A stretch of DNA of 59,778 bases from a virus (lineage: Duplodnaviria > Caudoviricetes). The stretch's first letter is position 1; each line of letters starts with the position of its first letter. This document shows, piece by piece, positions 7,949 through 22,776 of this stretch. The position numbers and the translations under genes were made by a program. The DNA is taken from positions 1 to 59,778 of the IMG/VR virus record IMGVR_UViG_3300020043_002033, one strand, 5' to 3'. Under the pieces are notes generated by a model that had not been told where the DNA came from, ran no database searches, and saw only the letters and a program-made list of their open reading frames with translations.

Positions 7949-8043
7949 GGTGCATCCTCATGGTTGTTAGGGTTAAACGGGATTGGTTTGTTGGGCATGG
8001 GCTTGGGCAGTTCAGTTGGAAAAGGCCAGTATGGATTGCTCAT
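7942..8043 (-). CDS. small Pro-rich hypothetical protein (33 aa)
   Basis: MSNPYWPFPTELPKPMPNKPIPFNPNNHEDAPW fills the gap; GGAG SD. Confidence 0.45.
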   Translation of the reverse strand: MSNPYWPFPTELPKPMPNKPIPFNPNNHEDAPW

Positions 8044-8222
8044 TTCCATGCTCCCTCATTGAACTTCGTTGCGTTCTCTAGTGCAAACACCATCAGCTTC
8101 TTCAAAACGTGCGGTGAAATCTTTATGGTTGCACCCTCACCATCTGTAAACATGAGCCAGTTTCCGTAGACTTCCATGTGTTTCACATCGTCAATTTCTG
8201 CGCCGTCACTGTTAAAGTTCAT
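8040..8222 (-). CDS. hypothetical protein
   Basis: ORF in the packed leftward operon. Confidence 0.55.
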   Translation of the reverse strand: MNFNSDGAEIDDVKHMEVYGNWLMFTDGEGATIKISPHVLKKLMVFALENATKFNEGAWK

Positions 8223-8223
8223 C

Positions 8224-8361
8224 TCACGCCCCCGTCAAAAAGAATGCCAGCTTGGCAAACTTCACGAAGATGCCGAAGATGAATCCAGCGGCCATCGCGC
8301 AGATGGCAACGCCGAGAAAGATGCCGAAGATAGCGGTCAGCCACATGAACAGTTCTTTCAT
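8224..8361 (-). CDS. small membrane protein (45 aa)
   Basis: MKELFMWLTAIFGIFLGVAICAMAAGFIFGIFVKFAKLAFFLTGA, hydrophobic; ATGA coupling. Confidence 0.6.
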   Translation of the reverse strand: MKELFMWLTAIFGIFLGVAICAMAAGFIFGIFVKFAKLAFFLTGA

Positions 8362-8567
8362 ACCAGCCCCCTGCTTGGCAGGGTGAACGCCACCAGTGAA
8401 CCGGGGCGGGGTACGTAGCCGCAAGGGTCTCCGTCGCCCACTTTGTAGGTTTTGCGTTTGAAGATGTCATTCTTCGGGGCTTGCACTTCGCCGGGTAGCT
8501 TTTTGCGCTCAAAATATTCTCCGGTGTGGATAGCTTTACGTGCGCCTTTTGAAAGTTTAATGTCCAT
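8358..8567 (-). CDS. hypothetical protein (RPGS..AF.LPSRG motif)
   Basis: GGAG SD; C-terminal motif typical of phage accessory proteins. Confidence 0.65.
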   Translation of the reverse strand: MDIKLSKGARKAIHTGEYFERKKLPGEVQAPKNDIFKRKTYKVGDGDPCGYVPRPGSLVAFTLPSRGLV

Positions 8568-8712
8568 CTTTTTTCTCCACGGGTTTAGCCAGCAGCCACT
8601 TATCTCCCAAAAAACGTACAGAGCGTACCCATGCTCTACGGTTGTGCCTGTCTATGCGGGGGATGCCAGAGTTAAAGTGTTGGCGCACTCTTGTCAGTAG
8701 TTTTGTGTTCAT
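8557..8712 (-). CDS. small basic hypothetical protein (51 aa)
   Basis: Hand translation MNTKLLTRVRQHFNSGIPRIDRHNRRAWVRSVRFLGDKWLLAKPVEKKDGH; AAGGA SD; first gene after a promoter. Confidence 0.65.
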   Translation of the reverse strand: MNTKLLTRVRQHFNSGIPRIDRHNRRAWVRSVRFLGDKWLLAKPVEKKDGH

Positions 8713-8754
8713 AGTCTTCCTTGGTTCATGCACTTATGTGTGTGCATGTGCAGA

Positions 8755-8782
8755 AGTCTACACTACTTTTCCAGCAATGCAA
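8755..8782 (-). promoter_or_regulatory. putative sigma70 promoter for the leftward accessory/replication operon
   Basis: TTGCAT-N16-TAGACT on the minus strand. Confidence 0.4.
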
Positions 8783-8813
8783 CTGCTTGTTCTGGTTTTT
8801 TTGTAACAGATGG

Positions 8814-9374
8814 CTAAGATTTACGCCAATCTGTCTGATCCCAGTTTCCCTTACCGTGGTTGCACTGGTGACAAAGAATTTGTAGGTTGCTCACATCCAA
8901 CGCCAAGTCTGGTCTCAGCTTCCTAGGTTGGATGTGGTCTACATTCATCACTGAGCCGTCGGCTGGCGTGGCCCCACAACACTGGCATCGTGGACCGTAT
9001 TTTTTTAGCGCCTCCATTCGCGCTTTACGCCAATGAAAAGTTTGCAAAAACGAAGACGAAGCAACATCAACTCCGTCTATGGTTTTAACTTTATTCGGCT
9101 TTCTAGTTTTTTGAGTTCTGTATATTTTTTTTGGCGCAGTTTTTGCCGGACAACTTTTTATTTTTTCAAACTGGTTTGTGCCAATGATGTGATCTATGCT
9201 CTCTTTCACCCACTGCTTGCTAGTCATGTTCATGGGCATCGGCATACCATCCACCTCAAGAGCCAAGCAAACAAGATCGTACAGGCCTGTGTTTTCTTTG
9301 TATGCGTAGCCCAATCTATCCTTGCAGTACCTTGTGAAAAAGACTGGTTTTATTAGTTTGCCATTAATCTTCAT
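8814..9374 (-). CDS. HNH endonuclease
   Basis: CQCCG...VDHIQPR...NLQILCHQCNHGKGN; GGAG SD. Confidence 0.9.
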   Translation of the reverse strand: MKINGKLIKPVFFTRYCKDRLGYAYKENTGLYDLVCLALEVDGMPMPMNMTSKQWVKESIDHIIGTNQFEKIKSCPAKTAPKKIYRTQKTRKPNKVKTIDGVDVASSSFLQTFHWRKARMEALKKYGPRCQCCGATPADGSVMNVDHIQPRKLRPDLALDVSNLQILCHQCNHGKGNWDQTDWRKS

Positions 9375-9399
9375 GATGACTCCGAGAGAGTGAGTGAGC

Positions 9400-9822
9400 T
9401 TCTTTAGGCAAGCCTATGCCTAGGGGAGAGCAAGCCCTCCGCCTATAGCATTACCTGACTCGTCGCTCGTTCATTCGCAACATTCAGGGGATGTGTAAAG
9501 TTGTTCGCCACATCCTATCTCCCGGTGTTATCCGCTCAACATGCGGCGTTCCCTAACCACACCACCGGAAGGCAACCCTACCCTCGCCACCGTGTACCGT
9601 CTCAATGAAGAACAGGATTGGTATAGCTACTCTACGGTCACTCTATCCCTATGCGCCCGGATGGGGATGCTTCTGATTCCGGGGATACAAACACAAGACA
9701 GAACTGTTGTGACTCTGCTCGCCCGGTACTACCTTTTCCCTGCCGCCATGACGCTTTACAGATACTCAGTTCCTGCCGTTTGTATGAAGTCTTTCCCGAT
9801 AGAACTTGTGTCGATCACCGTA
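9400..9822 (-). ncRNA. candidate large structured non-coding RNA
   Basis: At least eight closely packed inverted-repeat helices; G-U pairs favour the minus strand; no credible ORF. Confidence 0.5.
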
Positions 9823-9823
9823 G

Positions 9824-9922
9824 AAAACAAAAAAGCCGTTTACTACTGCTCTCGGTGGAAACCTCCTAAGAGGCAAGAGCATGAGTAAACGGCCTTTATC
9901 TGTCGCTTTCCACGGCAACGGG
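9824..9922 (-). ncRNA. C4-like antisense/attenuator RNA
   Basis: GTTGC-CGTGGAAA-GCGAC hairpin, then GCCGTTTAC...GTAAACGGC stem holding TTTCCAC and ending in a U-tract; architecture resembles phage C4-type RNAs. Confidence 0.6.
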
Positions 9923-9925
9923 GTT

Positions 9926-9934
9926 AGTGTAGCA
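9926..9934 (-). promoter_or_regulatory. putative extended -10 promoter for the RNA region
   Basis: TGcTACACT a few nt upstream of the first hairpin; no clear -35. Confidence 0.4.
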
Positions 9935-9940
9935 CAGGTT

Positions 9941-10411
9941 TTATTTTTTGAACTTGGTTAAAGAATCTTGTTCAACTATGTAGCCGTTCCCGTAGCCTAG
10001 GCTTCTCACGTTTTCTTTTCTGATCGCGCTGGCTGAGTCTATGTAGCCTACAAGGTCTACGTCATTTCCTTCTACGATAGCCAGCACGTATATGTCCACC
10101 TCGTCTACAGACTTGTCTATGTGTATAGCCAGTCTTCCATTCTTGTAGCGTGTGGCTTTTACGTCTATCTTCTTTCCCGTTCTCCCTATCAGGTCTGCTC
10201 CGCCTTTTCTTGGGAACACAGATAGGTCAGGGTACAGGTTAAACGCTTTGCCAAACGCCATCTCAGCCAGCATTCCATCCCGGTCTATTTCTATGGGGTC
10301 TTGTTTTCCCATCTGTTTGTCGGTTACGCCGTTGTTCCTTGCGGTGGCGTTCCTCATTAGCGCCAGCATTTGAGCTATGGCGCATTCAGATGGTGTCATT
10401 TTTACAAGCAT
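9941..10411 (-). CDS. putative PD-(D/E)XK restriction-endonuclease-fold protein
   Basis: G..AE.AF...GGADL......IDVKAT pattern; GGAGAG SD before the ATG at 10411. Confidence 0.6.
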   Translation of the reverse strand: MLVKMTPSECAIAQMLALMRNATARNNGVTDKQMGKQDPIEIDRDGMLAEMAFGKAFNLYPDLSVFPRKGGADLIGRTGKKIDVKATRYKNGRLAIHIDKSVDEVDIYVLAIVEGNDVDLVGYIDSASAIRKENVRSLGYGNGYIVEQDSLTKFKK

Positions 10412-10430
10412 CTGTCTCTCCGTTACGGGC

Positions 10431-10459
10431 AAAAAAAACCCCACCACACGGCAGGGTTA
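10431..10459 (-). terminator. Rho-independent terminator
   Basis: AACCCTGCC-GTGT-GGTGGGGTT hairpin running into a T tract, downstream of the VRR-NUC-like gene. Confidence 0.7.
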
Positions 10460-10485
10460 AGGTCGATTGACCAAGGGGAGATGGC

Positions 10486-10761
10486 CTATTCTATCACTGC
10501 TAGTGCGTCTTCTACAGAAGTCACTATGGCTATGATCCCGCCTGTCCACTCGTCAAAGAACTTTTTCTCTGCCGGGGTAAGCTGTCTCTGCGATGGCGCT
10601 TTGTCCCCGTCCTTCACCTCAAGCAGGTAAGTTACCCCCTTGTAGCCCACCAGCAGGTCAGGCAAGCCGTCTCCTTGGCTCACTATCCGTACATAGGCTC
10701 CCTTGGCTCTGAGGGCTTTCACTATGCAATTTTGATTGGCGTCTATGCGTTTTGCGTACAT
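10486..10761 (-). CDS. VRR-NUC-like / Holliday-junction-resolvase-like endonuclease
   Basis: R.DANQ..IV.ALR..G...GLPDLLVGY.G...LLEVKDG...LTPAE. Confidence 0.8.
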   Translation of the reverse strand: MYAKRIDANQNCIVKALRAKGAYVRIVSQGDGLPDLLVGYKGVTYLLEVKDGDKAPSQRQLTPAEKKFFDEWTGGIIAIVTSVEDALAVIE

Positions 10762-10785
10762 CGTTCTAAAACGTTTGAGAATAAA
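10757..10785. repeat. 29-bp palindromic site, copy 1
   Basis: TACATCGTTCTAAAACGTTTGAGAATAAA; near-identical to the reverse complements of 21022-21050 and 59639-59667. Confidence 0.8.
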
Positions 10786-10787
10786 TG

Positions 10788-10816
10788 TTGACTTGTGTGA
10801 TCCTATCTGGTACATT
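10788..10816 (+). promoter_or_regulatory. sigma70 promoter for the rightward recombination operon
   Basis: TTGACT-N17-TACATT with TGn extension; AAGGAG SD and ATG follow. Confidence 0.75.
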
Positions 10817-10844
10817 ACAACCAGAACAACCACCAAGGAGTGTC

Positions 10845-11048
10845 ATGTTAAGTCCAAAAGATCAGCGGATGTTGAAGGCCAGTTGCTTCGGTGACGGTAG
10901 CACAGGCAAGAACAATCCGGTACTCAATCAAACCATTAAAGAGATCATGGAAAAGAGTCCTTGGCTCTTTCATACAGATGTGTCATTAGATACGCGCCGT
11001 TTTTACCACAAGCCGTTCAACATTCCCTTCGCATCGGCGGTCAAATGA
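10845..11048 (+). CDS. hypothetical protein
   Basis: AAGGAG SD before ATG 10845. Confidence 0.6.
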   Translation: MLSPKDQRMLKASCFGDGSTGKNNPVLNQTIKEIMEKSPWLFHTDVSLDTRRFYHKPFNIPFASAVK

Positions 11049-11902
11049 AGTTAACCAACAAGCACAACCTGCCCCAGACGATCATCAATGTGATTGCACG
11101 GCCTACCTATACAAAGGGCAAGGCTAACTTCTCTGTAACTGAGTTACTTACCTCTCCGCGTATCGTTCAGCTAAAGCGTAAGCATTGGAACGATCTTGAA
11201 GAAGATGCTTCTGATATGGTGTGGTCACTGTTCGGCTCCGCCATTCACGGGGTTCTAGAACACGGTAAGGGCGATAACCATATCGTCGAAGAGCGAATCC
11301 ATCTTGAGATTGATGGCACTCACATCTCAGGTGCTATTGATCTGCAAGAGATCGAAGAGGATGGAATCATCTTGTCTGATTACAAAACCACCTCCGCATG
11401 GGTGGTTCAGAACGATAAGCAAGACTGGCATAACCAACTCAATGTCTACGCTTACCTTGTAGAGAAGGCTAAAAACAAGCCAGTCAAGAAGCTACAGATC
11501 GTTGCTATCGTTCGTGACTGGTCGCGCCGGGATGCCTTGAAAGAAGGTTATCCACAGGCTCCCATCGTCGTGCTTGATATTCCTCTCTGGTCATTTGCTG
11601 ACCGCGAGGCTTTCGTTAAATCTTGCATCGCAAAGCACACTTCTGCCGTGCTTGATATGGAGATTAATGAGCTTACCCAATGCACCCCAGAGGATATGTG
11701 GGAAAAAGAAACCACCTACGCCGTCAAGAAAGAAGGCGGCGTAAGGGCCAAAAGCGTTCACAAGACGCGAGAAGAAGCCGAGGCTGCTCTTACCAAGGGC
11801 TACTTTTTAGAAGTCAGAGAAGGAGAGCGTACTAGATGCGCCAATTTTTGTCAGGTCGCAGACTTTTGTGATCAATTCCAAACCTACAAAGGATCAATAT
11901 GA
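11045..11902 (+). CDS. PD-(D/E)XK exonuclease (RecB/Cas4-like)
   Basis: FGSAIHGVLE, ISGAIDL, DYKTT, QLNVY, C-terminal Cys cluster; next to the ERF recombinase. Confidence 0.85.
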   Translation: MKLTNKHNLPQTIINVIARPTYTKGKANFSVTELLTSPRIVQLKRKHWNDLEEDASDMVWSLFGSAIHGVLEHGKGDNHIVEERIHLEIDGTHISGAIDLQEIEEDGIILSDYKTTSAWVVQNDKQDWHNQLNVYAYLVEKAKNKPVKKLQIVAIVRDWSRRDALKEGYPQAPIVVLDIPLWSFADREAFVKSCIAKHTSAVLDMEINELTQCTPEDMWEKETTYAVKKEGGVRAKSVHKTREEAEAALTKGYFLEVREGERTRCANFCQVADFCDQFQTYKGSI

Positions 11903-12060
11903 ACTCAACAGCTATCGGGATTATTGGTGTACTAAGCACCTTTGCTTGGCTCACTCATGTGTTTACTTGTTTTGCTCAGGCCGCGTGGGGTTTCCTACTC
12001 GCCGGGGCAGTCTTCTTCCCTATCGGGATTCTTCATGGCCTTTACCTTTGGTTCAAATAA
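11899..12060 (+). CDS. small membrane protein (53 aa)
   Basis: Hand translation MNSTAIGIIGVLSTFAWLTHVFTCFAQAAWGFLLAGAVFFPIGILHGLYLWFK; AAGGA SD; fills the gap exactly. Confidence 0.7.
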   Translation: MNSTAIGIIGVLSTFAWLTHVFTCFAQAAWGFLLAGAVFFPIGILHGLYLWFK

Positions 12061-15156: not shown

Positions 15157-18100
15157 CTATTTCATACTCTTTCTGATGCTCTCTGCTTGCTCGGCGTACA
15201 TAGAAATAAGCTGCTTCATCTGATCAATCTGCTCTTTCTTTGTAGCGCCGTCTAGGTTCGGATCGTTTGTCACAATCCTGATCTGTTTACGCACATTAGC
15301 CATAGACTTCGCAGTCTTGTCATACAGCTTGTTCAGTGCAATCTTGTCGCTCTTTTCTGCCAAGATTTTCTGCACCTTCTCTGCGTCACCAATCTCTGCA
15401 TAGTGCCGCATGTCTGCGTAGGCTTGCGTAATCTCTTTGTCAGCTTCGTAGAAAGCAGTGGTGTATTTGGACATATTGGAAGGCAGTGTCCTCACCAGTC
15501 CAAGGCTTGCTTTATCCATCCAGTTTGTGTCGGGGTACTCACCCTCCCTAAACGGCATGGTGGCGTACATGGATGTTGTAGATGCCATCGCACCCAGCCA
15601 GCCAAAGTATGCCTTAATGGCATAGTCCACCTGTACCGGGCTGAGTTCTCCCTTTTCTCCAAGGATAGAAGTCATGCCGCCCAATGCCTGCGCCAGCGGG
15701 CTTGTGGTGTCGGTCATTCGTTCCTGCTTAGATAGCCTTTCCATACCTGCGCTTTCAATCGGCGCTCCGGTAAAGCTGTCTTTGTTTGCGTACAAGTCCA
15801 ACAGAGGTTTGAACATCTGCGGAACAGGGTTCATGGCAAAGGTGTCAAACAGCATACGGCTGATACTGTCGCCAAACGTTTTGCCTTCTGCGCCTTGGTC
15901 AAGTATCTGTTCCAAGATACGCTCAGTCATCGTGCCGAATGCGCCAATTTCAAATGGCTTGGGTACACGCAGTGCGTAGTCCATGTTCGGTAGTTTGATC
16001 CACCAGAAGTTGTCCCTGTCCCACTCGTCACGCTTCTTAAAGTCCTCATCGTCCTTGAAGGCCATATACAAGGCCATAGACGCAAGCGCAACAGAGGTTG
16101 TTACCAAACCAAAGGAGTAGGCTTTCTGTTTGTCTGTGTAGTCAATAGGCTTGCCGGTAATGGTGTTGTACAAGACCCGGCTGGTAGGCATGATGCCATC
16201 CCGGCCAAGTTTGTAAAGGCCCTGTACCCGTGCATTCAAGAACGGTACAACCATAGTCACAGTTCTAAACGCAGGCCAAGAGCCTTGCATAGAAAAGTCC
16301 ATCAAGTCCCTAGCGTTAAACGCAGCTTCAAGGTGGCTCATCCCACCGTCTCTGAGTTGTTTATACAGAGCAAGCCGGTTAGCCGCTTCTGATTTGTTGC
16401 CAAGTTCTTGGTACTTTTCCCACAGTCCTTTTAATCCTGCTTCAATCTTGTCTTTGGTGTCAAGGATGTGTTCTGATTTCACGCCCTGTTTAAGAAGGCG
16501 CTTCACCATTTTTGCTTGGTCACCTTCGTAGGTAGAGCCAAAGTTAAAGATAGCTCCGCCAGACAGTGCTTCTATGTATGTTGGGTTATTTTTATTTGCC
16601 AACCCAATACCTAGAGCTACATTGTAGAAAGGGTCTTTTTTCAAGTCGCTCACCGCCATCGCGGCGATGGAGTCTCGGATCAAGTTGTTTGTCTTGAAGA
16701 TCGGAGAGACTGTCACGCCAAATTGCAGCATGTTCTTAAAGTCTCTAGCCACATCCAAGAACTTGCTCTTTGGCCCCATGTATCCAATGGATGTAATGGA
16801 ATCCAGAAGCATGGGGTCTAGCACTTCAAAGTACATGGCATGACCATCTTTCATGATCTTTACCATTCCTTTACCAGACTCTGTGTACTCTGGTCGCAGC
16901 TTTCCGTCGCCTACAACTTCACCTGTCTTGGTGGATATAACCTTTCCGTCCTCGTAAGCCAGTCCAGCTTTCAAGTTAGGGATGGTTGCTCCGGCTTTCA
17001 TGGTCGCCTCTACCGTGCTATCGGCAGCTTGGTTCTTCATAGAGGCAGAAAGGATGTGACTCCAGTTCCTTAGAGTGTTCTCCATCAGATCACCGAAAGG
17101 TTTGTCGCTCATGCCTTTCAGTTCTGCACTGAATTTCTGGCTAGTCAAACCAGCGGAAGATACGGCGCTCTCTATGTCTCCATCCTCCATAGCCTTGTAG
17201 AAAGGTATGTAGAAGATGTCGCTTGTAAACCTCTCGTAAGCTCCGGGGTTGTTTCTCAGGTACTCAATGCGCTCTGCTTTCTTCTTCTCACTCATATCCG
17301 TGCGAGATTCAAGTTCTGCAATCTCTCGTTTGGATGAGTTGATAAGACCCATATTCAACGCAACGTCCAGCACAGATTTGTTCAGAGCGTTCATGTCTCT
17401 TTGTACGCTCTTATAAACTTCTATGCGTGGTTTGCCGTTCAGCATTCCTTGGGATAGCTGGTCTTTTTCTTTAGCCAGTTCAGTTAGCTCAGGTGACTTC
17501 TTATTGTCTGGCAGGTTTGATTCCCGGTTCAAAGCAATCCACATCATGTAGCGGTCTGTCTCGTTACCTACTGGCTTCAAAGCCTCCATCAAACCTTTGG
17601 TGTTTTTCTTGATGTTCAGCGCACCATCGTCATTGAATACGTGGCCGTGGAACATCAGTCCTTCCAAAGCTCCATCTTGGGTCTTGGACATACGCGCCAG
17701 CATGTAGGAGCGCATGTCGTAGTCTTTGATGGTTCTGTACTGGTCTGCTATTCCTTGTGCTGCTCGTCTCCAGAACCCGTCTTTCATTCCATCAATCTTG
17801 TCGATGATGGTTTTGCTTTGGGGATTGAATACTTTTCCAAGTCTTTCAATGTACTCTGGATCAACATCAGCCAGAGCTTCTTTGTTGATGGGCTGACGCT
17901 TCTGTAGGAGTTGTTGAGCTTTCTCTTTTGCTTTGTCTGCTTGAGAACGTAGGCTCTTTGCTTCACCCCTAGCTTCCCGTGCGCCAGCTTTGAGTTCGCC
18001 TTTTTCTACCTTGCCAAAAATCTGTTCGGCAGATTCCACTTTTGTGAGAGCAGATTTAATTGCTTGGAACAAACTACGCAGTCTGTTCAGCAAAGCCTGT

Positions 18101-21100
18101 AGCATCCCTGCTGGTGGTTTGGTAGCGTCAAAGTCCGCAAAGGCGTCAGCAACTGCCTCTTCGGTGATCTTCTCCATATCCCCTTTGTACTCACGCATGT
18201 AAGCGTCGTACCGGGATTCTTCGCCAGCTTTCAGTGGTTTACCGTCTACGTTTCTTTGCTTTAGGTATTGGTCAATCCACTTGTTCTTTGCCATGTTTGA
18301 CAAAGAGTTCCACTGGGCGTCAGTAAAGAATCCTAGTTCTCTCAGGGCGTGGATGGATTCATGCCGCAGGGTACGGATGGGGTTGGCGACATCGGCAGCA
18401 ACGCGGATAAGTTGTGCTGCGTAAGAGCCTTCGTCCCTCATTCCTTCTATGAGGTTTAGTCCTACTTGGTTTAGGCCAAACTTGTTTAGTAGATTACGGA
18501 GGGTTTGTTCAAAGTCTTTTACCTGACTGGTTGTATCTGCCCCGCGTTTGCTGAACAGGGGCAAGCCTTCGGTTTGCACTTTGCTCCGCATGGCGTCGGT
18601 GATGTCGAAGCCGGGTTGCTCAAACAATCGCCCATCGCGTCTCGCGGCAGGTTTTGCATCTTCTGGCAATGATTTTCCAACTATGCCTTGTTTATATACT
18701 TCGACACTCTTGATTCGCTCTCCGCCCAACTTAGGCAGCAGCTTGTTAAGTGCTTGCGGTACTATCTTGTCGTAGAAGGTCTTCATACCTTCGCCGCCGA
18801 CTTTGAGGTCAACACCAGAGAGGTCATGCACCCGGAAGCCAATCCCAGCGCGACGTGTTACCTTTGGCTTCTGTTGGAATAACTTCGCAGCAACTTCTTT
18901 CCCAACATAGTCTTCGATCTGAATTGGGTCGGAGATTTGCTGCTCCATTACTTTTTTATCGTTGTAATCGCGGGCAACCAGTACGCCGCTGCCAATAGGA
19001 CCATCAAGTCTAGGATCGCCAACGCCGCCGCTGCGGTTGTCAAGGTACTGCACGGACGCAATTTGCTTGCTCAGGTCATACCTTTCAGCAGACTGCTCAC
19101 CGTTTACAAATGCCACCTTGTCATAGCCACCTTCTGCTGCCATGACCATGATGCGCTTGAGGGCTAGGTTTAGCCAGCCTTCTGTTTTGGTAACGAATGG
19201 GGCTGTGGGGATTGCAGACTCTGATGCTGCGGATCGAAGAGATGCCATTTGATCAGACAGTGCGTCACGCTCTTCTGCGATCTTTTGCACACGGTCTTGC
19301 AGTTCTGCGAACCTGTCGTTGTAATCAGGAAGGTCTGCCATCTCCTTCTCTGCCGCCCTGCGCTCGGCTCCAAGAGCGTCATAGCGAGACACAAGGTCGT
19401 CCATTTTCTGTTTGGCTTCAGGGTCTGAGAACCCCTTCTTCTTCCCCTCTTGTCCCCAATCAGACTGAAGCTCTTCAACAAACAGCACCTTCTTGCCATT
19501 TGCGTCAGTGCGGTCGTTTACACGTATGTGGGCAAGAACATTGGGTTGTTGCCAATGAGATGACATGTAAGGAGTTGGCGACTTATCGTCGTCAATTTTC
19601 CTATGCACATTTTTCTTTTGCTCAGAAGAAAGTTGAGAATACTCTTTGCCATACAAAATACGGGCTGCTTGTACCGGCGATATACCGGCAACAGGATTAG
19701 TGCTTGGCAGCGTCAGAAGTACTTCGCGGTAGTTCTCACCACCGGGAATGACGTACTGTTCATATCTGCTTGGTTTTTGTTCAGCCTCAGATTTTTGAAC
19801 CCGATCTACAGTTTCTTGGTAACGCTCTTGATCTTTTTTAGACAGCATTTCAGGGAAACTGTCTTTGATCCTACGGAAATTCCCTTCAGGTCCAGATATG
19901 TCATAGATCGCATCAAGACCATATTTATCAGTCATTTCGTCAATGAAGTCGTCCACCTCAAAATTGGGTTCAACTTCATTTTTCAGCACCGTCTCTTCAA
20001 CCTTTACACCACCTTCTTTCAGGTAGTCCAAGATTGCTTGCTTGGTAACTTTGCCTTTTTGCAGGTCAAGGAAGTCGTTTACACCAGACCATTCGATCTC
20101 ATCAGGCTTGACTCCCTTGGTGGTCAGCGCCTTGATCATGGTTTTCCATTGCTCTGCTGGTGCTTGGTTTGGTCCAAGCGCTCCTATTTTTGATGCAAGC
20201 TCACTGTAAAAGCCTAGTTTTCCACGCAGGGAGAACATAGACTTTTGCCCAGCGGCTTCTGCCACATCAACGGGGCGGTCACTTCCCGTCAGGGTAAATT
20301 CACCTACCTCTTTGTCTGCTTTAGCTTTCTCTCTTGCTGCTTTTTCTTCGGCAGCAATGCGCTTCTCTTCTGCGGCTGCGCGTTCTTTTTGGGCTTTTAG
20401 TCCCTCTGGGGTGGGCGATGTTAGTCCTTCTTCAGCACCTTCTTCAGCAACTCGATTGTCGCTTTCGGGGGCAATGATCTCAGCTTCTTGATCAATTGCT
20501 CTTTGTTTTTCGATTGCTTCTTCAAGGAGGTAGTTTGCATCGTCAATTCCTAGTAGTTCACGTACTTCTGCTTCTGCTTCTTCAATGCTGCCAAACGCTT
20601 GTTTAAGAGCAACTTCGGTTTCGTATGAGTAATACTTACCGTTGCGGAGTTTTTCTTTGATGTACTCGGTGGCGTCTGTTTCGTCAAATGGCTCATTGGG
20701 GTTCTGCATACTTTGCCGCATGTTGTACGGCAAGAATTCATCTAGCTGTCCGTCTGCAACCAAGTCACCAATAGGTACGCCGCCGTTCTTTCCACGCAGG
20801 GCAATAAACTTCAGATCAGGGCTGATGTCGGTTACATCACTTTTAGTAAGCCGTCCGCGCAAGGCAGTCCATAGACTCATGCCCGGTTTCTTTTCAATTC
20901 GCCTGATCTCTTTTTCAATCGGCTCAACTGTTTCCGCTTCCCGCTGCCTAGCTTCCGTTAGCTGGATGCTCTCAGGCATTTTTTCTCCCTCGATGGGAGT
21001 GGCTTCTACGAAAGGCGGCGGTTCATTCTCAAACGTTTGAGAACGATTTACGAGTTCACTATCTTGCGGAGCGCTAGGCTCAGTGCTAACCGGCGGTCGT

Positions 21101-22776
21101 ACGGCTGCACTTTCATCAACTCCTTGGCTGACGGGAGCTTCTTGGATTCCCTTGCTTGGCGCAACAGTCTCTGCTCTAGCGGGTTGGGGTGGAAGTTGTT
21201 CACGTTCTTGCCTTTCTTTTATCAGGGCTTCCATTTGCTGGTTTTCAGCAAACCTATCTACTGGAGCTTGTGGTAGCTGCGGCAGGTTCACAAAGTTTGT
21301 AAACGCTTGTGCCATGCCCATGATGTTTTGAATACGGCCACGCTCTTGCTCGGACAGCGGCGCTTCGTTAATCAGCTTGAGCTTGCTGTTGATATCGTTA
21401 ATTGCCGTGCTGGCAAATTGGATATTGTTATCAAGCAAACTTTGAGCGCGGGCAATAATCCTGCCCTCTCTGATCCGTGCGTCAGTATCAACAATGGCGT
21501 TGTCCATTGTCTCTTTGGCACTTTGATCTTGGATGGTTGCAAGAGCTTGTTGCTGCTGCTGTTTGATTTTTAACTGGGCTTCTTCGTTGGCTCTAAGAGC
21601 TTCAGCATCTTGGTTCAACAAGCTCTGAATGATGGCCGTCTCATGCTCGTCTTTAATCCTAGCTACGTCTTGCTGTGTAGTAGGCGGTGCCGTTTGAATT
21701 TGTTTTTGTACGCCAGCTATTACGTCTTCAGGCCGCTCTGCTACTGCTCGTTGCTGCTGATAGATTCGTTTCTGCTCTGGGGTAAGTTGCTCCAGTCCAG
21801 TCTCTATCGGGGCTTCAGTGGCTTCCGGTTTAACTTCTGGCGTAACTTCAGGAGGCTTTACTTCAGGTGCTTCTGGTTTAGCCAATACGCGAGATGCTGC
21901 ACCCCCAACTCCACCGATGGCAGCAGCGCCAGCAGCAGCTTCTTTGTATTCCCTCTTTGCGTCTTCGTCTGTCAGAGATAGGCCAGCCTGCCAGCGCTCG
22001 GCGGCTTGTTCCAATACTTCTGTAGGTGCTTCTGCAACAATACCTAGTGTTGCCCCCTTTACTGCACGGCCAGCAACTCCAGACGTTCTTTTGGCTAGTT
22101 CTGCTGAGATTTCAGCGCCAATAGCTTTGGTCGGAAGTTTAGAAAGGCCAAGCGTAAATCTATCTGCAAAATACCCAATCGGAGCAGATACAGCAGAAGC
22201 AACGGCAGCTTTACCCGGCTCAAGCGTTTCACCAGTAGCACCTTCTTCAGCTTGGCGGCGCATGAATTGTCCAAACTGCTGAACTCCATACGTTCCTATA
22301 CCTGCCAAAGGTGCAACTACAGGAGCTAATGGGCCAGACATTGCACCAGCAGCAGCACCAGCAGCAAGAGGTACAGCCATACTAGGCGCACTCTGAAGCA
22401 CTTGCTCAGTGATAAATGAGGGTGCTTTTTTCAGGGCAGACATCAGCCCTTCTTTTTCGTAAGCCTTCTCAATGGATTCCCAAGATGTTCCTTGAGGTTC
22501 GGTGGCTTCTTTCTTTGCTTGCTCTCTTATTGCTGCTGCTTGTTCTCCTGCACTAGACATTCCCAGTGCGGATTTAATGCCCAGCCCAACGCCAGCAAAG
22601 CTCTCTGGTACAGCTTCAAATCCTTTTACGGCGGCGCGTTTTGCGCCCTCCATAAAGGTAGGTGCTGGCTTGTAGTTTTGTGCAGCTATCTGCTGAAGTT
22701 CAAAGTCTGTTGCATCATCTGGTCCTTCAATTTGGAGGATAGAGCCATCAGGGGCTTGTACTTTGAAGATAGCCAT
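15157..22776 (-). CDS. 2539-aa large polyvalent internal virion protein with HExxH module and C-terminal LPD38-like domain
   Basis: [10 protein letters not shown] zincin motif; DRDNFWWIK...[12 protein letters not shown]38-like signature; last gene of the morphogenesis operon. Confidence 0.75.
21022..21050. repeat. 29-bp palindromic site, copy 2 (inside the giant ORF)
   Basis: Perfect 18-bp palindrome TTCTCAAACGTTTGAGAA at 21026-21043. Confidence 0.75.

Follow-up and report, generated by a model that had tools for sequence, protein, structure and literature searches.

Does the long stretch without an open reading frame (ORF) upstream of a free-standing HNH endonuclease gene in a tailed-phage genome encode an RNA, and is such an RNA a partner of the nuclease or a gene in its own right? 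The locus lies in IMGVR_UViG_3300020043_002033, a whole IMG/VR virus record of 59,778 bases (the window; completeness estimate 95%) in which large terminase, portal, and head genes mark a tailed phage. An earlier note on this DNA proposed a structured RNA of ~420 nucleotides (nt) at this place, acting either as a new RNA–HNH ribonucleoprotein (RNP) or mobile element, or as a ColE1 RNA II-like replication primer with an HNH gene inserted in its flank. Analysis reveals a folded, non-coding RNA of ~437 nt on the minus strand that represents type 1 of an undescribed superfamily in a clade of ~60-kb tailed phages, and its fold, strand, non-coding nature, family, and genomic slot are established by the comparisons below. 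The explanation preferred here, which we hold to be somewhat probable, is that the RNA is an autonomous non-coding gene serving as a landing pad for a free-standing homing HNH gene and not one half of an obligate RNP.

A folded, non-coding RNA and its family

The RNA, three of its helical elements, and the hairpin that precedes it are positioned in the window as follows.

9377..9813, minus strand: type-1 structured RNA, ~437 nt (13 homologues at 75–90% nt identity; covariation; no Rfam match)
9519..9571, minus strand: helix 12 (12 pairs), inside which lies hairpin 13 (9532-9546); both rank with the best-supported elements (4 + 2 pairs changed on both sides; 98.8% and 100% of cells paired)
9489..9515, minus strand: hairpin 14 (9 pairs; 4 changed on both sides; 99.2% of cells paired)
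9416..9451, minus strand: 3′ hairpin 16 (14 pairs), then a conserved single-stranded motif (3 compensatory pairs; 98% of cells paired)
9824..9922, minus strand: long terminator-like hairpin (core stem 9894..9835) with a U-run (9834..9824), from a single-sequence fold, with equivalents upstream of the relatives' RNAs

In the type-1 RNA, helix P1 (9813..9805 with 9697..9688) closes the 5′ domain; a central domain and a set of 3′ hairpins make up the rest. The curated structure rests on an alignment (A5) of the window copy with 13 homologues, giving 14 sequences, 93 pairs, and 1302 cells, of which 98.2% are paired, while 32 of the 93 pairs show compensatory changes on both sides. None of 500 column shuffles reaches the observed values in four of five measures; the fifth, further pair types, is reached by 38 of 500. 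When the partners are slid by 1–3 columns, pairing drops to 39–42.5% and 3–8 both-side-changed pairs are left; this control is somewhat favorable because the structure was derived from the same sequences, although the independent compensatory changes are still numerous. The covariation sought among the intergenic regions of related phages is present. Covariation-supported helices map to 9454-9488, 9489-9515, 9519-9571, 9416-9451, 9572-9641, 9656-9684, and 9688-9813 of the window. Of eight helices proposed earlier, the first three of these coincide exactly, while the other five overlap the supported elements only partly.

These data also redraw the boundaries of the element. A large structured RNA stands as proposed, with its extent corrected from ~420 nt to ~437 nt (9813..9377). 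The ORF-free stretch opens with ~110 nt (about 9922..9824) that belong not to the RNA but to the separate terminator-like hairpin with its U-run. The HNH start codon (ATG at 9374) lies 42 nt past the last hairpin of the RNA, instead of the ~30 nt first given, and 2 nt past the end of conservation.

Folding energy and pair composition both place the RNA on the strand of the HNH gene, in agreement with the earlier reading. The single-sequence fold of the minus strand reaches -204.7 kcal/mol, compared with -183.95 +/- 7.17 kcal/mol for dinucleotide shuffles (z -2.89), and is better than 100 of 100 such controls; the plus strand folds no better than its shuffles (z -1.39; 11/100 as good). Additionally, 199 of the 1302 cells are G-U and only 7 are A-C, so that the 98.2% pairing on the minus strand would fall to 83.5% on the plus strand, which upholds the G-U argument made for the minus strand. 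No conserved ORF exists in 9375-9940, as had been noted. The plus-strand ORF 9541-9888, whose conservation as a coding sequence would have spoken against an RNA, carries 2–7 frameshifting indels in each of the 13 homologues, and its substitutions by codon position (200/251/211 at positions 1/2/3) lack a third-position excess.

The RNA matches no known family. A cmscan search of the whole window with Rfam 15 returns no match for the RNA among 4227 families at the gathering score, and at an E-value (E) of up to 10 the interval 8700-10100 gives two chance matches only, both outside the RNA. Ten relatives' loci (five type-1 or syntenic, five type-2) likewise give no match for the RNA at the gathering score, tRNAs being a separate matter, and L169, one of the related loci cited here by L numbers, gives only chance matches at E up to 10. 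ARAGORN detects no tmRNA in the window or in 20 loci. Two resemblances within type 2, the second subtype described below, were examined and rejected: an RNase P-like reading of GAGGAAAGUCCG in three copies, where the string only replaces a hairpin loop, and a tRNA-like CCA end in the tail, which has no matching acceptor strand and no counterpart in type 1.

Homologues were collected with nhmmer profiles and not with a covariance model, and divergent subtypes are under-counted. Blastn against loci fetched through two flanking proteins recovers the RNA in 7 loci at 75–90% nt identity; all 7 were fetched through the HNH protein, which is only 44–73% identical there. A 17-base invariant motif matches 12 viral contigs, 5 of them new. 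One more type-1 copy, which lacks this motif, was detected when 80 loci collected through the PD-(D/E)XK exonuclease gene were searched with a profile; this sample is independent of both RNA and HNH. A metagenome scan yields 25 contigs, re-finds of viral copies included, and the type-1 profile confirms 25 of 25.

HNH homologues of the same clade that lack type 1 are likewise preceded by ORF-free regions with short strings in common with the RNA. A profile built from five such regions detects a second subtype, type 2 (~350–380 nt), in many loci, and a gapped pattern matches 63 viral contigs, with 45 distinct copies. In its own alignment (A4, n=45, RNAalifold), type 2 forms 91 pairs with 94.4% of cells paired and 54 of 91 pairs changed on both sides, values that none of 500 shuffles reaches. 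Types 1 and 2 can be aligned over their whole length with a joint profile; the two have in common the P1-closed 5′ domain, several invariant strings, and a 3′ hairpin module, which in the combined alignment is that of hairpin 16. Type 3 (~430 nt), recognized by eye and blastn only, occurs at L040:3441-4012, L041:2785-3285, L043:1253-1729, and in part at L055:3537-3856, where it sits between the same hairpin and a full-length HNH gene and carries the CGAC-X / CUCG-X′ form of the repeat described below. The nhmmer profiles miss type 3, and counts of RNA-minus loci are therefore upper bounds. The window copy has all marks of the superfamily: the P1-closed 5′ domain with invariant UCUAUCGGG and ACNAC(N)GUUCU, the AGAAG loop, the 3′ hairpin followed by UAGGCA, and the X/X′ repeat. 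Half copies also occur, matching profile positions 4–181 only (L198, L203, and L252) or 18–308 (L253), which suggests modular exchange of the 3′ half.

As far as searched, the superfamily is confined to one clade of uncultured phages, and it has three or more divergent subtypes. Neither the RNA nor positions 8000-12000 has a blastn match among GenBank phages. Two pattern scans of 185,579 bacterial and archaeal species genomes give 4 + 15 hits, none confirmed by three nhmmer profiles at E up to 10; the hits are therefore attributed to chance, and since the scans used exact patterns, they do not prove absence from cellular genomes. A literature search found no description of such an RNA. PMC10690425 reports 8495 candidate structured RNAs from IMG/VR, and "HNH" does not occur in the main text of that paper; the RNA may sit unnamed among these candidates.

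In four RNA-labelled runs, drawn from four studies, contigs of 155–288 nt align at 90–95% identity with the core of the relatives' RNAs (window positions 9546-9675 and 9579-9803), and one further contig from RNA-labelled runs matches the hairpin. These contig-level data, which may include DNA, are a weak hint of transcription. The contigs were picked by the RNA's own words, which makes their lack of HNH or upstream-gene coverage uninformative. In DNA runs labelled drinking-water, aquatic, or freshwater, no more than 27% of the sampled words are present, and no habitat is drawn from these runs.

The HNH gene and the co-varying repeat

The gene that follows the RNA and the two copies of a short repeat in the RNA are located as follows.

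8814..9374, minus strand: free-standing HNH endonuclease gene, 186 amino acids (aa) (PF01844, PHROG 144, PDB 5h0m)
9456..9461, minus strand: X, internal hairpin-loop copy of the repeat, GAGTCA in the window (permutation test and mapping to the window)
9377..9382, minus strand: X′, 3′-junction copy and last conserved bases of the RNA, ending 2 nt before the HNH ATG (same test; A5)

The HNH protein matches Pfam PF01844 at residues 130–177 (3e-9) and PHROG 144 (2.4e-20), and its sole solved sequence relative is the HNH endonuclease of phage GVE2 (PDB 5h0m, 8.3e-6). An AlphaFold2 (AF2) model built from 12 sequences (pLDDT 73.6) consists of a helical N-domain (~1–66), a disordered linker, and a C-terminal HNH core. 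Foldseek with this model ranks 5h0m highest (E 7.9e-3), with no match as good as E 0.001; the matches listed include no IscB chain. Neither Pfam nor the AF2 model gives a RuvC or PLMP signal, the PLMP fold itself not having been compared directly, and the earlier statement that the protein lacks both motifs agrees with Pfam and with the helical-bundle N-domain. Sequence matches and model together point to an ordinary GVE2-like HNH of the common phage HNH families.

An HNH-motif ORF starts within 25 nt of the RNA 3′ end in 11 of 14 type-1 and 14 of 45 type-2 copies. Counted over 59 distinct full-length RNAs, an intact HNH ORF lies directly downstream of 25 and is absent from 34, including 3 of the 14 type-1 copies. 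Among metagenome contigs the HNH-motif ORF is found in 22 of 25; of the other three, one is truncated where its contig stops, and two belong to the HNH-less L161 type. The HNH genes fall into at least four architectures, all of which start 0–25 nt past the RNA (L035 counted with its likely true start). Decayed forms stand beside intact RNAs: L106:2765-2902 (type 2) is a remnant without an ORF, and L084:1855-2133 (type 1) encodes a 92-aa stump with the N-domain only. HNH-less RNAs are followed by at least eight different other ORFs, including a conserved ~97-aa protein, ParB, and a terminase-small-like protein. The commonest non-HNH gene past the RNA in both types encodes a conserved ~73–97-aa protein with an (I/M)EPDYP motif, found after type 2 in L137, L140, L141, L143, L234, L236, L244, L246, and L249 and after type 1 in L076:41-262.

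This distribution is patchy even between close relatives. HNH presence differs between the RNAs of L226 and L206 (92% identity) and of L197 and L150 (89%), and homology between relatives continues downstream of the HNH gene. On a FastTree phylogeny of type-2 RNAs, the 14 HNH-bearing tips need 9 changes (shuffled mean 12.2, minimum 7). A stand-alone ORF wedged between conserved sequences and patchy in close relatives, together with signs of gain, decay, and loss such as the L106 remnant and the L084 stump, is the pattern of a free-standing homing endonuclease gene. The earlier note had held that an RNP would be contradicted if homologous RNAs usually lacked the HNH; with 34 of 59 RNAs lacking it downstream, an obligate RNP is not supported by this test set beforehand, nor by the scatter of the HNH genes on the RNA tree. 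The mobile-element reading survives in altered form, with the HNH behaving like a free-standing homing gene that uses the RNA gene as its site, and not as originally stated.

The association is nonetheless non-random. In the exonuclease-anchored sample, 48 of the 80 loci cover the slot and only 20 of these have a detectable RNA copy; the HNH occurs in 10 of the 20 RNA-bearing loci and in none of the 28 RNA-minus loci (exact p ~3e-5, ignoring relatedness). In a sample anchored on the HNH itself, 40 loci have upstream coverage, of which 12 show type 1 or 2 by profile, 4 show type 3 by blastn and eye, and 24 show none; the RNA-less loci are mostly matches to the C-terminal domain only, in other contexts. 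A non-random link between the RNA and a stand-alone HNH gene is thus supported, and the dependence is one-way: the RNA does not need the HNH, and within the clade the HNH is found only behind the RNA.

A second tie joins the body of the RNA to its 3′ junction. The direct repeat X/X′ is 6–13 nt long; X follows CGAC in types 1 and 3 and CUCC-RR in type 2, and C/U-rich, anti-Shine-Dalgarno-like bases stand before both copies. X′ overlaps the ribosome-binding (Shine-Dalgarno) region and spacer of the next ORF. The two copies change together between phages, with six variants among the 14 type-1 copies and at least 13 among the 45 type-2 copies. Specifically, the longest common substring of a copy's own pair is 6.6–6.7 nt, compared with 4.4–4.5 nt for mismatched pairs, a difference reached by 0 of 5000 permutations in either type. 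Although relatedness inflates this permutation test, the coupling is argued to be real because many distinct variants exist. It is equally present with and without the HNH, including in 31 HNH-less type-2 copies. No cis partner complementary to X forms a covarying helix in the RNA or its flanks, where only a self-complementary AUGU artefact appears, and the reverse complement of X lies nearby in 6 of 45 copies, compared with 15% in controls. We know of no RNA class with a direct repeat that co-varies between an internal loop and the 3′ junction.

Weighing the explanations

In the preferred explanation, the RNA would be made from an early leftward transcript. Read-through, or cleavage of the long duplex, would probably place its 5′ end at the hairpin or beyond it. 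It would act on its own, as an RNP scaffold or as a catalytic or regulatory RNA; the guess we favor is a catalytic RNA or a stable RNP scaffold, with a 3′ tail that also forms part of the start of the next gene, where X′ would double as the ribosome-binding region of whatever ORF comes next. The HNH gene at the 3′ end would be a free-standing homing endonuclease gene that targets, or lands beside, the conserved RNA gene, and would spread by cutting HNH-less alleles in co-infecting relatives, through intronless homing with co-conversion. Several points weigh on the other side. HNH cleavage in this scheme is a prediction. The window's own type is often HNH-linked (11/14 viral copies, 22/25 metagenome hits), which leaves room for a functional RNA–HNH partnership, and X/X′ ties the RNA body to the start of the downstream ORF, a tie that a purely trans-acting RNA does not predict. 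Moreover, the 28 RNA-minus loci may hold undetected subtypes, the contigs from RNA-labelled runs may hold DNA, and a scan finds no sigma-70-like promoter between the hairpin and the RNA.

One form of partnership would be an RNA-dependent HNH of the OMEGA/IshB kind, in which loop X specifies the DNA site X′ as part of an RNA-programmed homing module and HNH-less copies are relics or are served by an HNH in trans. We consider such dependence unlikely, and we doubt even more its most specific version, in which loop X would read X′ in HNH-less relatives and direct a minimal, non-RuvC HNH there; if true, this version would give phages an RNA-guided homing endonuclease with no relation to IscB or Cas9. 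The layout fits, with the HNH ORF always starting 0–25 nt past the RNA on the same strand, as omega RNAs precede IscB, an association that recurs over three divergent RNA types, and, in the unbiased sample, an HNH only where the RNA is (10/20 versus 0/28). IshB, according to the available part of PMC11610941, is an OMEGA protein of ~180 aa that is HNH-only and has an omega RNA. The variable 6–13-nt loop has the same sequence as the DNA at the HNH junction, and the two co-vary (0/5000 permutations). However, the 31 HNH-less type-2 copies show this co-variation equally, and X equals X′ instead of complementing it, an identity that any RNA has with its own gene. The 34 of 59 RNAs without an intact downstream HNH ORF, the scatter of the HNH over the RNA tree, an N-domain that varies in at least four architectures while the RNA is constant, and the 24 of 40 HNH-anchored loci with upstream coverage that show none of the three RNA types all run counter to dependence, as do the lack of a HEARO match, the helical N-domain, and the absence of IscB among the Foldseek matches listed. 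Another reading is a giant cis-acting 5′ leader that controls translation initiation of the next ORF, or transcription past the hairpin, with loop X competing with the ribosome-binding region X′ or acting as its decoy; this we regard as only modestly credible. In 12 of 14 type-1 copies and most type-2 copies, no more than 30 nt separate the RNA end from the start of an ORF. X′ lies over the Shine-Dalgarno region and spacer of that ORF while co-varying with an internal hairpin loop, the anti-Shine-Dalgarno-like C/U-rich bases precede both repeat copies, and the RNA, placed after a terminator-like hairpin, heads a long series of small early genes. Yet the downstream ORF changes (HNH types, ParB, terminase-small-like, several small proteins) and in some copies lies 85–159 nt away, no cis partner complementary to X is found, and tRNA neighbours suggest a stable-RNA gene cluster. 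Moreover, 370–455 nt with ~90 conserved pairs and long invariant unpaired runs far exceed the needs of known leaders.

Two further readings are much less probable. One takes the RNA as an origin structure or as a primer transcript like ColE1 RNA II, into whose flank the HNH gene was inserted, and has in its favor the size of the RNA and its place among Erf, exonuclease, VRR-NUC, ParB, helicase, and primase genes; nothing beyond size speaks for the primer itself as the earlier note proposed it, and we rate this reading as very improbable. A copy is detectable in only 20 of 48 slot-covering relatives, the conservation and G-U asymmetry fit a folded RNA with invariant loops and not an R-loop-forming primer, and neither a GC-skew or composition break at the RNA site nor an antisense partner or iterons were seen. 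Least probable of all is a degenerate self-splicing intron, or intron-derived ribozyme, with a homing endonuclease gene at its 3′ end. HNH genes are frequent in phage group I introns, the conserved fold is large, and a short repeat lies near the boundaries; nevertheless, the earlier observation that no group I or group II core is present holds at E up to 10 in Rfam, the flanks are a terminator hairpin and unrelated ORFs instead of gene halves, and the RNA occurs without any endonuclease.

Compared with known systems, the locus by analogy would work most like intronless homing beside a stable-RNA gene. SegB of phage T4 is a GIY-YIG enzyme. As with SegB and the other Seg and Mob genes, a stand-alone endonuclease gene is wedged between conserved sequences in a phage RNA-gene region, and as in Seg/Mob intronless homing it is patchy in close relatives, with decayed copies and several architectures at one site. 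The differences from SegB are an HNH instead of a GIY-YIG domain, a neighbour that is a ~440-nt RNA and not a tRNA, and an ORF that abuts the RNA within 0–25 nt. According to the available part of PMC13565253, SegB, a free-standing homing endonuclease, cuts tRNA genes and promotes the inheritance of their region; for the present locus, the likeness to homing is one of sequence patterns.

The OMEGA systems (IscB/IsrB/IshB) are resembled in layout, with a large structured RNA directly upstream of, and co-oriented with, an HNH-containing nuclease ORF, but each testable feature of membership failed. There is no match to HEARO, which is presumably among the 4227 Rfam families scanned, no RuvC or PLMP signal, and a closest structure that is the GVE2 HNH and not IscB or Cas9. 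The locus is a fixed syntenic phage slot without IS200/IS605 context (transposon ends were not searched for), the RNA often occurs without an HNH, and its 5′ flank is a semi-conserved leader after a terminator instead of a variable guide. The likeness to IshB lies in a length of ~180 aa and an HNH-only composition (PMC11610941, in the part available).

As an object, the RNA is nearest to the ornate phage RNAs of the GOLLD/ROOL type, without being related to them. GOLLD and ROOL RNAs are found beside tRNA genes. Like them, the RNA is phage-borne, several hundred nt long, and rich in conserved helices, and tRNAs flank 3 of 14 type-1 copies. Unlike them, it is smaller than GOLLD, belongs to other hosts and another phage clade, has the X/X′ repeat and the HNH linkage, and gives no sequence or structure match; in the window and the relatives' loci, no Rfam match to GOLLD, ROOL, OLE, RNase P RNA, or tmRNA models was obtained. 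Group I introns with HNH ORFs, and GIR1 preceding an endonuclease mRNA, similarly couple a structured RNA of comparable size to a homing gene; they differ in their intron core, which has no match here, in splitting a host gene, and in that the present endonuclease follows the RNA instead of lying inside it. ColE1 RNA II is likewise a structured non-coding transcript of several hundred nt in a replication-gene neighbourhood, but the present RNA is optional in its clade and its conservation pattern is that of a folded RNA.

Large, ornate, covarying RNAs are rare, and RNase P RNA, introns, OLE, GOLLD, ROOL, and HEARO each led to unusual biochemistry; the present RNA stands out by its long invariant loops and by the conservation of about 90 base pairs. 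Its occurrence both with an HNH gene abutting it and without one constitutes a natural experiment, which makes testable both the use of a 440-nt folded RNA to a phage and whether minimal HNH homing proceeds by protein alone or is RNA-aided.

The slot and the surrounding genes

Two genes stand upstream of the hairpin and the RNA.

9941..10447, minus strand: upstream gene, 168 aa (weak DUF5843 / phrog_18407 match)
10486..10836, minus strand: VRR-NUC-like nuclease gene, syntenic anchor upstream of the RNA slot (PHROG 93; synteny)

The minus-strand order is VRR-NUC-like gene (10836..10486), 168-aa gene (10447..9941), ORF-free stretch, HNH gene (9374..8814), and small ORFs, within an early region that also encodes Erf, a PD-(D/E)XK exonuclease, ParB, a helicase, and a primase. 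The RNA types occupy one slot of this early replication/recombination operon, downstream of the VRR-NUC-like gene and after a long hairpin with a U-run; over 20 exonuclease-anchored loci the RNA begins 245–2307 nt past the VRR-NUC-like gene. Between that gene and the RNA, tRNA genes occur in L076 (His, Pro) and in L079 and L089 (Met); the window itself contains none. The 168-aa gene has no match in the RNA-bearing relatives compared and is placed elsewhere in other relatives, and it appears to be an optional DUF5843-like cassette between the VRR-NUC-like gene and the hairpin.

The hairpin at 9824..9922 closes off the upstream gene, leaving about 10 nt before the RNA starts. A strict automatic rule detects a long stable hairpin that runs into a T-run, no more than 75 nt upstream, for 38 of the 59 RNA copies, and in other copies, for example L036, L037, and L076, an extra hairpin is intercalated (by eye). 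The ~95-nt hairpin is itself conserved at 72–85% identity, also in RNA-less loci (L014:2762-2853, L002:116-219, L009:3534-3628), where its place is sometimes upstream of the DUF5843-like gene instead of downstream. It could serve as a reusable module for termination or processing, perhaps as a site for RNase III.

In L088:5795-6175, and partly in L090:6466-6687, the slot holds an unrelated ORF-free stretch of ~380 nt without an HNH gene; in L088 it follows tRNA-Tyr, tRNA-Leu, and the hairpin, and it may be yet another RNA. Elsewhere in the window, positions 15157-22776 form a single ORF of 2539 aa, most of which is without a family, while its C-terminal ~680 residues match PHROG 18222 (function unknown, 8e-162).

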